Source: Escherichia coli
GTDB taxonomy: Bacteria; Pseudomonadota; Gammaproteobacteria; Enterobacterales; Enterobacteriaceae
Reading direction: 5' to 3' (one strand)
Assembly (NCBI RefSeq): GCF_003790525.1
Contig: NZ_CP033635.1
DNA length: 64,000 nucleotides
Positions 3,001 through 6,000 of this stretch are shown here, one piece after another; the first letter of the stretch is position 1, and the number at the start of each line of letters is the position of its first letter. The position numbers were made by a program.

Positions 3001-6000
3001 CCGAGGCTTTTGAGCTGAGTGCGGCAGAGCGTGAAGCGATTGAGCACGAGATGCACCACTACGAAGACCCGCGTGCGGCGTCCATTGAAGCGCTGAAAAT
3101 CGTTCAGAAGCAGCGTGGCTGGGTGCCGGATGGCGCGATCCACGCGATCGCCGATGTGCTGGGTATTCCGGCGAGCGACGTCGAAGGTGTGGCAACGTTT
3201 TATAGCCAGATCTTCCGCCAGCCGGTTGGCCGCCATGTGATCCGTTATTGCGACAGCGTGGTCTGTCATATCAACGGTTACCAGGGCATCCAGGCGGCGC
3301 TCGAGAAAAAGCTGAACATCAAACCAGGACAAACGACATTTGACGGTCGCTTTACGCTGCTGCCAACTTGCTGCCTGGGGAACTGTGATAAAGGGCCAAA
3401 CATGATGATCGATGAGGATACTCACGCACATCTGACCCCGGAAGCGATCCCTGAACTGCTGGAGCGGTATAAATGAAAAACATTATCCGTACTCCCGAAA
3501 CGCATCCGCTGACCTGGCGTCTGCGCGATGACAAACAGCCAGTGTGGCTGGACGAATACCGCAGCAAAAACGGTTACGAAGGGGCACGTAAAGCGCTGAC
3601 CGGGCTGTCGCCTGACGAGATCGTCAACCAGGTGAAAGATGCTGGCCTGAAAGGGCGCGGCGGCGCAGGCTTCTCGACGGGCCTGAAGTGGAGCCTGATG
3701 CCGAAAGACGAATCCATGAACATCCGTTACCTGCTGTGTAACGCTGATGAAATGGAGCCGGGCACCTATAAAGACCGCCTGCTGATGGAGCAACTGCCGC
3801 ACCTGCTGGTGGAAGGTATGCTTATCTCCGCGTTTGCGCTGAAAGCTTACCGTGGCTACATCTTCCTGCGCGGCGAATATATTGAAGCGGCAGTGAATCT
3901 GCGCCGTGCCATTGCCGAAGCCACCGAAGCGGGTCTGCTTGGCAAAAACATTATGGGAACAGGTTTCGACTTCGAATTGTTCGTCCATACCGGGGCAGGG
4001 CGCTACATCTGCGGTGAAGAAACAGCGTTAATCAACTCCCTGGAAGGGCGTCGCGCTAACCCACGCTCGAAGCCTCCATTCCCGGCAACCTCCGGTGCAT
4101 GGGGCAAACCGACCTGTGTCAATAACGTCGAAACCCTGTGTAACGTTCCGGCGATCCTTGCTAACGGCGTGGAGTGGTATCAGAACATCTCGAAAAGTAA
4201 AGATGCTGGCACCAAGCTGATGGGCTTCTCCGGTCGGGTGAAAAATCCGGGTCTGTGGGAACTGCCGTTTGGCACCACCGCACGCGAGATCCTCGAAGAT
4301 TACGCCGGTGGTATGCGTGACGGTCTGAAATTCAAAGCCTGGCAGCCAGGCGGCGCGGGCACCGACTTCCTGACCGAAGCGCACCTTGACCTGCCGATGG
4401 AATTCGAAAGTATCGGTAAAGCGGGAAGCCGTCTGGGTACGGCGCTGGCGATGGCTGTTGACCACGAGATCAACATGGTGTCGCTGGTGCGTAACCTGGA
4501 AGAGTTTTTCGCCCGTGAGTCCTGCGGCTGGTGTACGCCGTGCCGCGACGGTCTGCCGTGGAGCGTGAAAATTCTGCGCGCGCTGGAGCGTGGCGAAGGT
4601 CAGCCGGGCGATATCGAAACACTTGAGCAACTGTGTCGATTCTTAGGTCCGGGTAAAACTTTCTGTGCCCACGCACCTGGTGCAGTGGAGCCGTTACAGA
4701 GCGCCATCAAATATTTCCGCGAAGAATTTGAAGCGGGAATTAAACAGCCGTTCAGCAATACCCATTTGATTAATGGGATTCAGCCGAACCTGCTGAAAGA
4801 GCGCTGGTAACCGAATTTCGATTAACGCTCAGTCTCTGACTGAGAAAACTGGAAGCATGCTAATGGCTACAATTCATGTAGACGGCAAAGAATACGAGGT
4901 TAACGGAGCGGACAACCTGCTGGAAGCTTGTCTGTCTCTGGGCCTTGATATTCCTTACTTTTGCTGGCATCCGGCGCTGGGAAGCGTCGGTGCTTGCCGC
5001 CAGTGTGCGGTGAAGCAATACCAAAACGCGGAAGACACGCGTGGTCGCCTGGTGATGTCCTGTATGACACCGGCTTCCGATGGCACCTTTATTTCCATTG
5101 ACGACGAAGAAGCGAAACAGTTCCGTGAAAGTGTGGTCGAGTGGTTAATGACCAACCACCCGCACGATTGTCCGGTATGTGAAGAAGGCGGTAACTGTCA
5201 TCTTCAGGATATGACCGTGATGACCGGACACAGCTTCCGTCGCTACCGTTTCACCAAACGTACCCACCGTAATCAGGATTTGGGGCCGTTCATCTCTCAC
5301 GAAATGAACCGCTGCATCGCCTGCTACCGCTGCGTGCGTTACTACAAAGATTACGCTGACGGCACGGACCTGGGCGTTTACGGTGCGCACGACAACGTCT
5401 ACTTCGGTCGCCCGGAAGACGGCACGCTGGAAAGCGAATTTTCCGGTAACCTGGTCGAAATTTGCCCGACCGGCGTATTCACCGACAAAACGCACTCCGA
5501 GCGTTACAACCGTAAATGGGATATGCAGTTTGCGCCGAGCATCTGCCAGCAATGTTCCATCGGCTGTAACATCAGCCCCGGCGAGCGTTATGGCGAACTG
5601 CGTCGAATCGAAAACCGTTACAACGGTACAGTAAACCACTACTTCCTCTGCGACCGTGGTCGTTTCGGTTACGGTTACGTGAACCTGAAAGATCGTCCGC
5701 GTCAGCCAGTACAGCGTCGTGGCGATGATTTCATTACCCTCAACGCCGAACAGGCAATGCAGGGCGCAGCAGATATTCTGCGTCAGTCGAAGAAAGTGAT
5801 CGGTATTGGTTCTCCGCGTGCCAGCGTGGAAAGCAACTTTGCGCTGCGTGAGCTGGTGGGCGAAGAAAACTTCTACACCGGTATCGCTCACGGTGAGCAG
5901 GAACGTCTGCAACTGGCGCTGAAAGTGCTGCGTGAAGGCGGCATTTATACGCCGGCACTGCGCGAAATCGAATCTTACGATGCGGTACTGGTGCTGGGCG

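Follow-up and report, generated by a model that had tools for sequence, protein, structure and literature searches.

The hairpin upstream of nuoG in Escherichia coli is a copy of the nuoG RNA motif RF01748, a selected RNA structure and possible module of nuoG translation initiation

The nuoF–nuoG Junction

The stretch of DNA considered herein, 64,000 nucleotides of the Escherichia coli contig NZ_CP033635.1 (assembly GCF_003790525.1; hereafter the window), contains the junction of nuoF and nuoG on its plus strand. The nuoF coding sequence extends from 3473 to 4810, according to the ORF list and the RefSeq annotation of identical E. coli sequence, and ends with the TAA codon at 4808–4810. In an unbiased set of nuoF–nuoG spacers from 80 species, the NuoF C-terminus reads ...QPNLLKxRW followed by the stop in all 80. 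A conserved TGATTAAC was considered as the nuoF stop in other species and was rejected, since NuoF ends in ...RW everywhere. The nuoG coding sequence (4863–7589, plus strand, 908 aa; RefSeq) starts at the annotated ATG at 4863 (ATGGCT, MATIHV...), 7 nt past its Shine–Dalgarno (SD) sequence. The latter, GGAAG at 4851–4855, is invariant in 80/80 species and is labelled as such in the annotation of the published motif drawing (Weinberg et al. 2010). An in-frame ATG at 4857, the choice of the ORF caller, is not the RefSeq start; in Klebsiella, Pluralibacter, and others, ACG takes its place. Between the nuoF stop and the nuoG start lie 52 nt in the window, compared with 27–263 nt across species.

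A hairpin occupies positions 4828–4844 of the plus strand, starting 17 nt past the nuoF stop, and GGAAG follows 6 nt further on. Its 5′ arm CTCAGTC (4828–4834) and 3′ arm GACTGAG (4838–4844), both supported by sequence, fold, and covariation, form seven Watson–Crick pairs around the loop TCT (4835–4837). This loop is unconserved, measures 3–6 nt elsewhere, and can host large insertions, including ERIC-like elements. G4827 and A4845, just outside the stem, cannot pair. Thus, the perfect 7-bp hairpin 6 nt upstream of GGAAG that a sequence-only reading of this DNA had described is correct in sequence and coordinates. On the 5′ side lies an AU-rich, single-stranded, conserved flank, GAATTTCGATTAAC (4813–4826, plus strand); on the 3′ side, the linker AAAACT (4845–4850), whose length is invariant across species, connects the helix to the SD.

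Folded alone, the hairpin reaches −9.2 kcal/mol and accounts for 96% of the ensemble (z = −3.6 versus shuffles). In a 101-nt context fold it is retained in the centroid, with an overall z of only −0.66. Counting perfect hairpins with stems of 7 bp or more and loops of 3–8 nt gives 51 in the whole window, compared with 24.9 ± 5.5 in Markov shuffles. A 7-bp hairpin considered by itself is within chance expectation, and the significance of the nuoG hairpin therefore derives from comparative evidence, namely, the Rfam match and the covariation described below.

The hairpin is not a terminator, as the sequence-only reading had already held. The stem tail AAAACTGG has no U-tract, and a scan of the plus strand from 4300 to 5300 returned no terminator-like site; the same interval gave no promoter call at the hairpin. 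Published Term-seq tables list 3′ ends in the nuoB–nuoC spacer and inside nuoG, with one near position 5100 of the window, and none at the helix. Furthermore, full-length nuoA–N transcripts have been seen by direct RNA sequencing.

Identity of the Hairpin

The hairpin represents, in E. coli, the nuoG RNA motif already published as Rfam RF01748. Positions 4813–4855 (plus strand) match the covariance model over its entire length (model positions 1–43 of 43) with 50.3 bits and E = 7e-9 in cmscan, the curated gathering threshold being 33 bits. The match lies in the E. coli nuo operon with nuoF and nuoG on either side (RefSeq). The variable hairpin is framed by the 5′ consensus GAAUUnUYGAUUAAC and the 3′ consensus YUGGAAGCAUGCU with the SD, as judged from the cmscan alignment, the published consensus line, and a MAFFT alignment of 43 distinct species that was built blind to structure (alignment A1). 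In A1, G and TTAA of the 5′ flank are invariant and C is nearly so. The stem covaries, as is characteristic of RF01748.

The window is 100% identical to E. coli strain 165, and matches were obtained in 5,422 of 5,426 genomes. Its exact sequence is also a row in the alignment of Weinberg et al. 2010 (Genome Biol 11:R31), in which K-12 is included; hence, the hairpin was already known. It is a catalogued orphan motif and no new kind of element. This identity had escaped the sequence-only reading. Weinberg et al. assigned the motif no function and, in view of its absence from Salmonella, left the reality of the structure open, while Rfam gives its type as 'Cis-reg' (predicted function). No experimental study of the nuoG motif was found in the searched literature.

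Selection on an RNA Structure

Whether the structure is real can now be regarded as largely settled. In alignment A1, 94.9% of the cells are paired on the sense strand versus 86.8% on the antisense strand; seven of the eight pairs show double changes, with 78 compensatory cells in total. None of 500 shuffles reached the observed pairing and compensation values, and slid-register controls were paired at 16–45% (45.5% at most). A G–U pair is present in 27 cells and an A–C mismatch in 2; this excess assigns the structure to the sense RNA strand and rules out a DNA-level palindrome or an antisense-strand structure. The population data agree. Of the 5,422 E. coli genomes, 4,462 have the allele of the window and 937 an allele in which an A–U pair is exchanged for G–C by compensatory change; other alleles occur in just 23, and the two that were examined keep the pairing.

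These data show that the helix in the sense-strand nuo mRNA is kept paired by selection across the Enterobacterales, with drift in its sequence and loop. Recognition of the loop by a specific protein or ligand, for which the IRE-like CAGUG loop of Mangrovibacter served as a candidate, was rejected because neither loop length nor loop sequence is conserved. The data also show the helix-less Salmonella-type spacers to be genuine losses.

Architecture of the Spacer

The helix-to-SD geometry is identical in 47/47 sequences, with variation in the linker sequence itself (CAACT, CTTAC, CTGAT, ATAACT, AAAACT). The linker measures 5 nt past the closing G–C pair and 6 nt in the window, where the closing pair position is G/A. 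The 14 nt on the 5′ side of the helix are on average 78% A+U (46 species) and the helix is 43% A+U. The helix is missing in 24 of the 80 species, including Salmonella and Klebsiella, where the 14 nt that adjoin the SD on its 5′ side reach 89% A+U. A simple rule emerges: upstream of the SD there is invariably an AU-rich tract, which either abuts the SD or faces it across the helix base. In Buttiauxella noackiae/agrestis a precise deletion joins the AU-rich flank to the SD; it falls exactly between short AAC...AAC repeats that flank the helix.

For palindromic repeats the spacer is a hot spot: boxC-like, ERIC-like, and other elements occur in it, and it often carries very stable palindromes unrelated to the motif. 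In 37 of the 47 hairpin-bearing species such a palindrome follows the nuoF stop, upstream of the AU-rich flank. Insertions of ~60–150 nt in the loop, ERIC-like elements among them, are still closed by the basal stem, so that the juxtaposition of the two flanks is preserved. For the E. coli hairpin itself, a REP or ERIC identity is not supported. A 60-nt query finds one place per genome by megablast, a count that short degenerate copies could escape, and the ERIC core scores of the window spacer are low (4–6 of 22, compared with 10–15 for the loop inserts of loci L027, L061, L066, and L073). The common GCCUGA...UCAGGCCAAC form of the stem resembles the base of REP.

A Proposed Role in nuoG Translation Initiation

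We tentatively propose, at somewhat less than even confidence, that the hairpin serves as a structural module in a translation initiation region that belongs to nuoG itself and is uncoupled. NuoG synthesis would have to start afresh downstream of an untranslated spacer that is highly variable in length and content. The helix would pack the G+C-richer segment of this spacer into a compact, self-contained stem, whose base would hold the AU-rich tract GAAUUUCGAUUAAC on the 5′ side and the SD on the 3′ side, 5–6 nt away. With the flanks held in this manner, the SD and the AU-rich tract, which may serve as a standby surface for 30S/S1, would stay unpaired and adjacent. Both would be insulated from the upstream sequence, in many species a very stable repeat palindrome. 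Helix-less lineages would have the same arrangement, with the AU-rich tract placed right against the SD. The helix neither ends transcription nor couples nuoG translation to nuoF.

Accessibility calculations in silico are in line with the proposal. Averaged over 47 species, opening the SD–AUG region costs 5.7 kcal/mol for the wild type and 6.1 with both arms changed; disruption of either single arm raises the cost to 6.7 and 7.1 kcal/mol. The effect is small (~0.6–1 kcal/mol net, among species that are non-independent), and for the window's own sequence it is absent (3.47 versus 3.52 and 3.90). Two observations run counter to the proposal: the near-invariant G–UUAAC is more specific than A+U richness demands, and tall ERIC-bearing helices, which should hinder a standby mechanism, nevertheless persist. 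Moreover, the helix is dispensable, having been lost repeatedly. A tolerated insert that merely has to remain folded would explain this repeated loss just as well.

Alternative Explanations

Two alternatives are unlikely to a similar degree. According to the first, the AU-rich flank and the helix would dock Hfq beside a RyhB site predicted on the nuoG SD, which would allow gene-specific translational repression of the Fe–S-rich NuoG inside the operon mRNA. The predicted site, ACTGGAAGCA (4848–4857, plus strand), is a perfect complement to RyhB nt 52–61 (UGCUUCCAGU, K-12 sequence); it begins 3 nt past the helix and covers the SD. This 10-nt complement (ACUGGAAGCA) occurs once in the window, although perfect RyhB complements of at least 10 nt are not rare there (~15–20 places). 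Its hybrid-plus-accessibility score is −11.7 kcal/mol, versus −8.3 kcal/mol for the validated RyhB–nuoA site in the same pipeline. Only 1.0% of 1,000 random 120-nt windows, and 0 of a separate 200, score as well, so that this perfect 10-nt duplex overlapping the SD ranks in the top 1%. The score replaced whole-molecule RNAduplex scoring of RyhB, which was uninformative because 39% of windows equalled the site.

Published expression data point in the same direction. In the study of Wang et al. 2015, RyhB repression is flat over nuoA–I by RNA-seq (0.61–0.79), whereas by Ribo-seq it jumps from 0.89 for nuoF to 1.68 for nuoG, the operon maximum, followed by 1.37 for both nuoH and nuoI; these Ribo-seq differences come from a single study with modest statistics. 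NuoG protein has also been reported to drop ~3-fold in a RyhB-dependent manner, in work that raises the question of how a gene >5 kb away from the nuoA site comes to be repressed. Conservation is harder to interpret. The 10-nt complement is retained in 51/81 loci, but this is confounded by the identity of the site with the SD. Hairpin-less species keep 8–9 nt, which means that the complementarity does not need the helix. In addition, no (ARN)n motif for the distal face of Hfq lies nearby. The broader idea that translation starts under separate control at the nuoG motif, inside the 15-kb nuo mRNA, where RyhB, with Hfq docked on the flank and helix, represses NuoG and the translationally coupled NuoH/I directly and besides the nuoA site, is possible but doubtful. 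PMC5575007 mentions nuoG once as an sRNA target, probably of RyjA.

The second of these alternatives invokes processing and stability. RNase E sites follow a RAUUW or RN↓WUU-type consensus, and sequences of this kind adjoin the stem–loop in the 5′ flank. The enzyme could cut there (GA↓AUU, GAUUA), after which the helix would protect the 5′ end of nuoG–N or block 3′-exonucleases for nuoA–F. The additional palindrome in 37/47 hairpin-bearing species produces a hairpin/AU-rich/hairpin layout, typical of intercistronic processing sites. According to the summary in PMC2229807, ERIC elements so placed affect transcript stability in Yersinia, where they modulate segmental mRNA stability (De Gregorio et al. 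2005). Beyond this layout, nothing found favours the RNase processing that the sequence-only reading had suggested. The published lifetime of the nuo mRNA is a uniform ~4 min along most of its 14 kb, and the reported RNA ends include none at the site. In the operon-decay supplements of Dar and Sorek, nuo genes appear solely within the list of operons. Furthermore, a cut in the flank leaves 5–13 unpaired nucleotides, too many for a protective 5′ stem, and a helix of −9 kcal/mol is a weak barrier to exonucleases. The strictly constant distance to the SD would not be predicted either.

Less likely still is that the helix is a tolerated relic, derived from a small palindromic insertion into the spacer and devoid of positive function. 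Selection would then keep it folded only because a G+C-rich insert would do harm next to the ribosome-binding site if it were unfolded. This explanation is in line with the repeat hot spot, the AAC...AAC repeats and the exact Buttiauxella deletion, the unconstrained stem and loop sequences, and the loss of the helix in ~24/80 species whose nuoG start region is otherwise unchanged. However, the element is single-copy by megablast against E. coli genomes, and its flanks are strongly conserved. Moreover, the accessions of the published alignment, which we take to be Proteus, Photorhabdus, Yersinia, and Escherichia, hold the motif in the same position, a long persistence for a neutral insert.

Finally, it is highly improbable that the element is a translational coupling device, an intrinsic terminator or attenuator, or a chance hairpin: it does sit between two cistrons, and 7-bp hairpins commonly arise by chance, but the SD lies outside the helix next to a spacer of 27–263 nt, the U-tract and the terminator call are missing from a region crossed by full-length transcripts, and the RF01748 score and covariation exclude chance. 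Coupling, the other function suggested by the sequence-only reading, is further contradicted by the 52 nt between stop and start, by the stable palindromes that often intervene, and by species such as Salmonella and Klebsiella in which the helix is missing. What stands from that reading is that the polycistronic nuo mRNA carries a true cis element beside the nuoG ribosome-binding site and that this element is not a terminator; coupling is unsupported, and RNase processing is unlikely.

Significance

The comparative and population evidence added here shows a helix selected as RNA, and it answers the caveat of Weinberg et al. on hairpin-less Salmonella. The second addition is an architectural rule: the AU-rich tract adjoins the SD, be it directly or by way of the helix base, and the helix-to-SD distance is fixed. 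The predicted RyhB site on the nuoG SD is a new lead towards iron regulation that matches a previously unexplained Ribo-seq pattern. If the link to RyhB were true, an sRNA would act on a cistron in the interior of a very long operon, and the cell's largest Fe–S consumer would be tuned subunit by subunit, NuoG being the subunit with four Fe–S clusters. Such an internal site would also answer how repression reaches a gene >5 kb downstream.

Comparison with Known Systems

The nuoG hairpin shares the short stem–loop of Rho-independent terminators but differs in having just four G–C pairs and a 3-nt loop, followed by AAAACUGG without a U-tract. Like the intercistronic REP/ERIC palindromes (e.g., the malE–malF REP), it is a stem–loop in an untranslated spacer of a polycistronic mRNA, and ERIC-like elements even occupy its loop in some species. 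Unlike them, it is a single-copy element of 17 nt, positionally conserved across the order and subject to compensatory evolution; in contrast to REP/ERIC stability elements, it has no associated 3′ end, and the lifetime of its mRNA is uniform.

The RyhB sites at the translation initiation regions of sodB and nuoA (Chareyre et al. 2019) offer another parallel, as the single-stranded core of RyhB is predicted to pair with the nuoG SD and the nuo operon is known to be RyhB-repressed. The nuoG site differs in being a prediction, and the hairpin is not part of the duplex.

Ribosome standby modules, as described by de Smit and van Duin (2003) and by Espah Borujeni and co-workers (2014), reportedly combine a single-stranded tract, a small upstream hairpin, and an SD. 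The nuoG region resembles them in having an AU-rich single-stranded tract at the distal end, a short hairpin for which unfolding is unnecessary, and a short linker on the proximal side that leads to the SD. As a difference, strong structure is lacking at the ribosome-binding site of nuoG (3.5 kcal/mol to open), which makes the need for a standby site questionable. With the nuoG RNA of RF01748, the E. coli hairpin agrees in position, flanks, covarying hairpin, and SD, and structurally nothing sets the two apart.

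Identity of the hairpin

The perfect 7-bp hairpin noticed in the nuoF–nuoG spacer by an earlier sequence-only reading is present as described: window 4828–4844 reads CTCAGTC-TCT-GACTGAG, a 3-nt loop closed by seven Watson–Crick pairs, followed by AAAACT and the Shine–Dalgarno sequence (SD) GGAAG at 4851–4855. It lies inside the 52-nt spacer that separates the nuoF stop (TAA, 4808–4810) from nuoG. In isolation its folding energy is −9.2 kcal/mol, and it accounts for 96% of the ensemble (z = −3.6); in a 101-nt context it is kept in the centroid, and the stability of the whole segment is not unusual (z = −0.66). 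Since perfect 7-bp hairpins with loops of 3–8 nt are not rare (51 in the window versus 24.9 ± 5.5 in shuffles), the nuoG hairpin, though confirmed, has no claim to attention by itself.

The RefSeq annotation of the identical E. coli sequence starts nuoG (908 aa) at the ATG at 4863 (ATGGCT...), 7 nt past the SD. Another in-frame ATG at 4857, only 1 nt past the SD, would give a 910-aa ORF and is not the choice of RefSeq. At this upstream position Klebsiella, Pluralibacter, Kluyvera and others have ACG, which at the sequence level confirms the second ATG as the start. The upstream ATG remains in frame despite a 3-nt indel (ATGCTAATGG, ATGCTGACTATGG, ATGTTCACTATGG).

An Rfam scan gave one strong match, RF01748 ("nuoG RNA"), at 4813–4855 on the + strand, scoring 50.3 bits (gathering score 33) and covering all 43 model positions. 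The family was described by Weinberg et al. 2010 (PMC2864571). In their Stockholm file several E. coli genomes have a sequence identical to that in the window, and K-12 MG1655 is entered as a duplicate. Their consensus, RGAAUUnUYGAUUAAC-GCYYG...CRRGYCAn-YUGGAAGCAUGCU, has a hairpin of variable length and a labelled SD, and they report the motif missing from Salmonella. The hairpin is the catalogued nuoG RNA motif; given the match and the published alignment row, it is a known feature, an orphan motif and candidate cis-regulatory element. A literature search found no later experimental work on it. Judged by its accession numbers, the published alignment includes members of Proteus, Photorhabdus, Yersinia, Serratia, Pectobacterium, and Sodalis, which would make the motif ancestral to the order. 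New here are an answer to the structure question, an architectural rule, and a testable RyhB hypothesis.

Comparative evidence for structure

To escape the bias that concerned the original motif authors, loci from 80 species of Enterobacteriaceae and Erwiniaceae were gathered through protein homologues of the NuoG N-terminus, and every nuoF–nuoG spacer was read. NuoF ends in ...QPNLLKxRW* at all loci, and the spacers span 27–263 nt. A compact hairpin is found at 46 loci (stems of 6–8 bp, loops of 3–6 nt), while 10 have the same basal stem with large loop insertions of roughly 60–150 nt that themselves fold. The remaining 24, from Salmonella, Klebsiella, Raoultella, Kluyvera, Phytobacter, Trabulsiella, Citrobacter sedlakii, Shimwellia, and two Buttiauxella, are hairpin-less and, judged by their spacers, are real losses. 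The Rfam gathering threshold was reached by 41 of the 80 loci.

Covariation was evaluated on a MAFFT alignment of 43 distinct compact sequences, whose arms were positioned by the conserved flanks and not by pairing. The 8-pair helix is 94.9% paired, with both-sided changes in seven of eight pairs and 78 compensatory cells; none of 500 shuffles matched these values, and slid registers pair only 16–45%. G-U cells outnumber A-C cells (27 versus 2), which assigns the structure to the sense RNA strand, where pairing is 94.9% versus 86.8% on the other. By this covariation, the nuoG helix is a selected RNA structure.

Within E. coli, the window's allele occurs in 4,462 of 5,422 genomes and CTCGGTC-CCT-GACCGAG in 937. 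The two differ by a compensatory A-U to G-C pair and a loop change (window 4831/4835/4841). Any other form occurs in only 23 genomes, with intermediates at ≤0.4%; two of these rare alleles were examined, one having a C-G to U-G wobble and the other a change outside the stem. A GTDB representative named "E. coli" has a third form, CTCGGTT-TAT-AACCGAG.

Architecture of the spacer

Across species the sequences of stem and loop are unconstrained and pairing alone is maintained, which makes sequence-specific recognition of the hairpin unlikely. Conservation resides in the flanks: the 5' flank (4813–4826 in the window) is 78% A+U with a near-invariant G-UUAAC, and the ribosome-binding site forms the 3' flank. 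GGAAG follows the closing pair after 5 nt in every one of 47 sequences, with six unpaired nucleotides where the outer pair is lost, as in the window. This linker is variable in sequence (CAACU, CUUAC, CUGAU, AUAACU, AAAACU), and, unlike it, the rest of the spacer shows frequent indels. Where the hairpin is missing (24 species), A+U makes up 89% of the 14 nt immediately 5' of the SD. Buttiauxella noackiae and B. agrestis ATCC 33320 have lost the hairpin precisely between flanking AAC repeats, joining ...AUAAUUAAC to UGGAAG (DNA: ...ATAATTAAC|TGGAAG; last 30 nt of the spacer). Their congeners retain the hairpin or carry an ERIC in it, and on this comparison the deletions show the helix to be dispensable and cleanly excisable.

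Four loci (from Citrobacter sp. MGH106, Buttiauxella agrestis/brennerae, and Enterobacteriaceae LSJC7) carry a 127-bp ERIC-like palindromic element in the loop, inserted apparently at a TA. It matches both ERIC core sequences and recurs as a dispersed repeat in intergenic regions of E. coli; with the insert in place, the whole is still closed by the basal stem GCCTGA/TCAGGC. Six further species have shorter palindromic loop inserts, and predicted folds of the long insert-bearing hairpins are likewise closed by the basal stem. In 37 of 47 hairpin-bearing species the AU-rich flank is separated from the nuoF stop by a stable, non-homologous palindrome (boxC-like and others), which is missing in Escherichia and the Enterobacter/Lelliottia group. 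The boxC-like repeats (CCCTCACCC...GGGAGAGGG...GGGTGAGGGG), found at eight loci, reach several tandem copies, as in the 263-nt spacer of L071. In six loci of the Raoultella group the AU-rich leader lacks the hairpin and is preceded by a different palindrome.

Termination, coupling, and mRNA decay

The sequence-only reading had also held that the hairpin is not a terminator, and this part of its interpretation stands: there is neither a U-tract nor a terminator call at the helix, full-length nuoA–N transcripts have been observed by nanopore direct RNA sequencing, and the K-12 Term-seq tables list no 3' end there. Its suggestion of a translational-coupling element does not hold, as the SD lies outside the helix and the spacer varies enormously in length (27–263 nt) and content. 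Term-seq 3' ends do occur in the nuoB–nuoC spacer and ~238 nt into nuoG; the latter, a strong, Rho-independent "internal" end at window ~5100 (+) in Adams et al. 2021, could reflect a decay intermediate or premature termination (~5040–5100). Other long nuo spacers are also structured. The nuoL–nuoM spacer (11824–11986) contains a REP-like palindrome (GTAGGTCGGATAAGCCGCATTCGCGGTGCATCCGACAC) and, ~25 nt 5' of nuoM, a small hairpin (GGTCCTGACGGGACT; z = −3.1); the nuoB–nuoC spacer (1078–1170), with its reported 3' end, forms a long-range helix (CCTGTCGGC/GCCGACAG).

Placing an RNase E site within the AU-rich flank, and reading the helix as protective, would match the hairpin/AU-rich/hairpin layout of many species. 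However, a lifetime of ~4 min over most of the 14-kb nuo mRNA (Chen et al. 2015) indicates no strong segmental decay; lifetime and 3'-end data lend no support, and the constant helix–SD distance is not predicted. This explanation is considered unlikely.

A predicted RyhB site

A role of the helix in an sRNA/Hfq module, with RyhB pairing at the nuoG SD, appears similarly improbable. Window 4848–4857 (+), ACUGGAAGCA / ACTGGAAGCA, is perfectly complementary over its 10 nt to RyhB nt 52–61 (UGCUUCCAGU; RyhB sequence from the K-12 genome), beginning 3 nt past the helix and spanning linker and SD. With a simple hybrid-plus-accessibility score it reaches −11.7 kcal/mol, a value attained by only 1.0% of 1,000 random 120-nt windows and none of a separate 200. 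The identical pipeline recovers the RyhB–nuoA site (where 21 nt of RyhB cover the start and the ribosome-binding site), validated by Chareyre et al. 2019, at a weaker −8.3. Plain 10-nt RyhB complements are, however, not rare, and although the complement is kept in 51 of 81 loci, with 8–9 nt left in hairpin-less species, its conservation is confounded with that of the SD.

After 10 min of RyhB induction, Wang et al. 2015 recorded repression by RNA-seq and Ribo-seq. RNA changes were flat over nuoA–I (0.61–0.79), and Ribo-seq repression was 1.47 for nuoA, 1.09 (B), 1.43 (C), 1.10 (E), 0.89 (F), 1.68 (G), 1.37 (H), 1.37 (I), 0.93 (J), 0.88 (K), 0.89 (L), 0.79 (M), and 0.52 (N). Within the operon, the translation-specific drop is greatest at nuoG, with a jump from nuoF and a carry-over to nuoH; the nuoG stop and the nuoH start overlap. 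Chareyre et al. found a 3-fold, RyhB-dependent fall in NuoG protein and asked how repression spreads >5 kb from the nuoA site; a literature search found no prior report of a RyhB site at nuoG. Participation of the hairpin, e.g., as an Hfq-binding AU-rich-plus-stem module, is speculation. Elsewhere, the 12 nt of window 23059–23070 (+), GCAATGTCGTGC, are perfectly complementary to the seed region of RyhB (nt 34–45). They lie close to where a 431-aa ORF (21882–23177) ends and inside an overlapping 673-aa ORF call (22915–24936), and are probably a chance match.

A proposed bridge in the translation start region

Less likely still is a tolerated palindromic relic that needs only to remain folded, which agrees with the repeated losses and the repeat-rich spacer but fits the order-wide positional conservation and conserved flanks more poorly. 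Tentatively, and at somewhat less than even chances, we favour the helix as a self-contained bridge in the nuoG translation start region. Initiation at nuoG would occur de novo after an untranslated spacer, on a constant layout of AU-rich single strand, closed helix, 5-nt linker, and SD; hairpin-less lineages would have adopted another solution, an AU-rich tract abutting the SD. Both layouts together suggest that the key need is an unpaired AU-rich tract adjoining an unpaired SD. The helix would stop a G+C-richer segment from interfering with the start region and shield it from upstream palindromes.

In silico, opening the SD–AUG region costs on average 5.7 kcal/mol for the wild type; disrupting one arm or the other raises this to 6.7 and 7.1, compensatory changes give 6.1, and deletion gives 6.3. 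In the window's own sequence, hairpin changes have no effect on this predicted cost. These modelled values favour the bridge weakly, in the right direction. Standby-site modules have been described for bacterial translation initiation, and by analogy the layout of the nuoG helix appears to resemble them.
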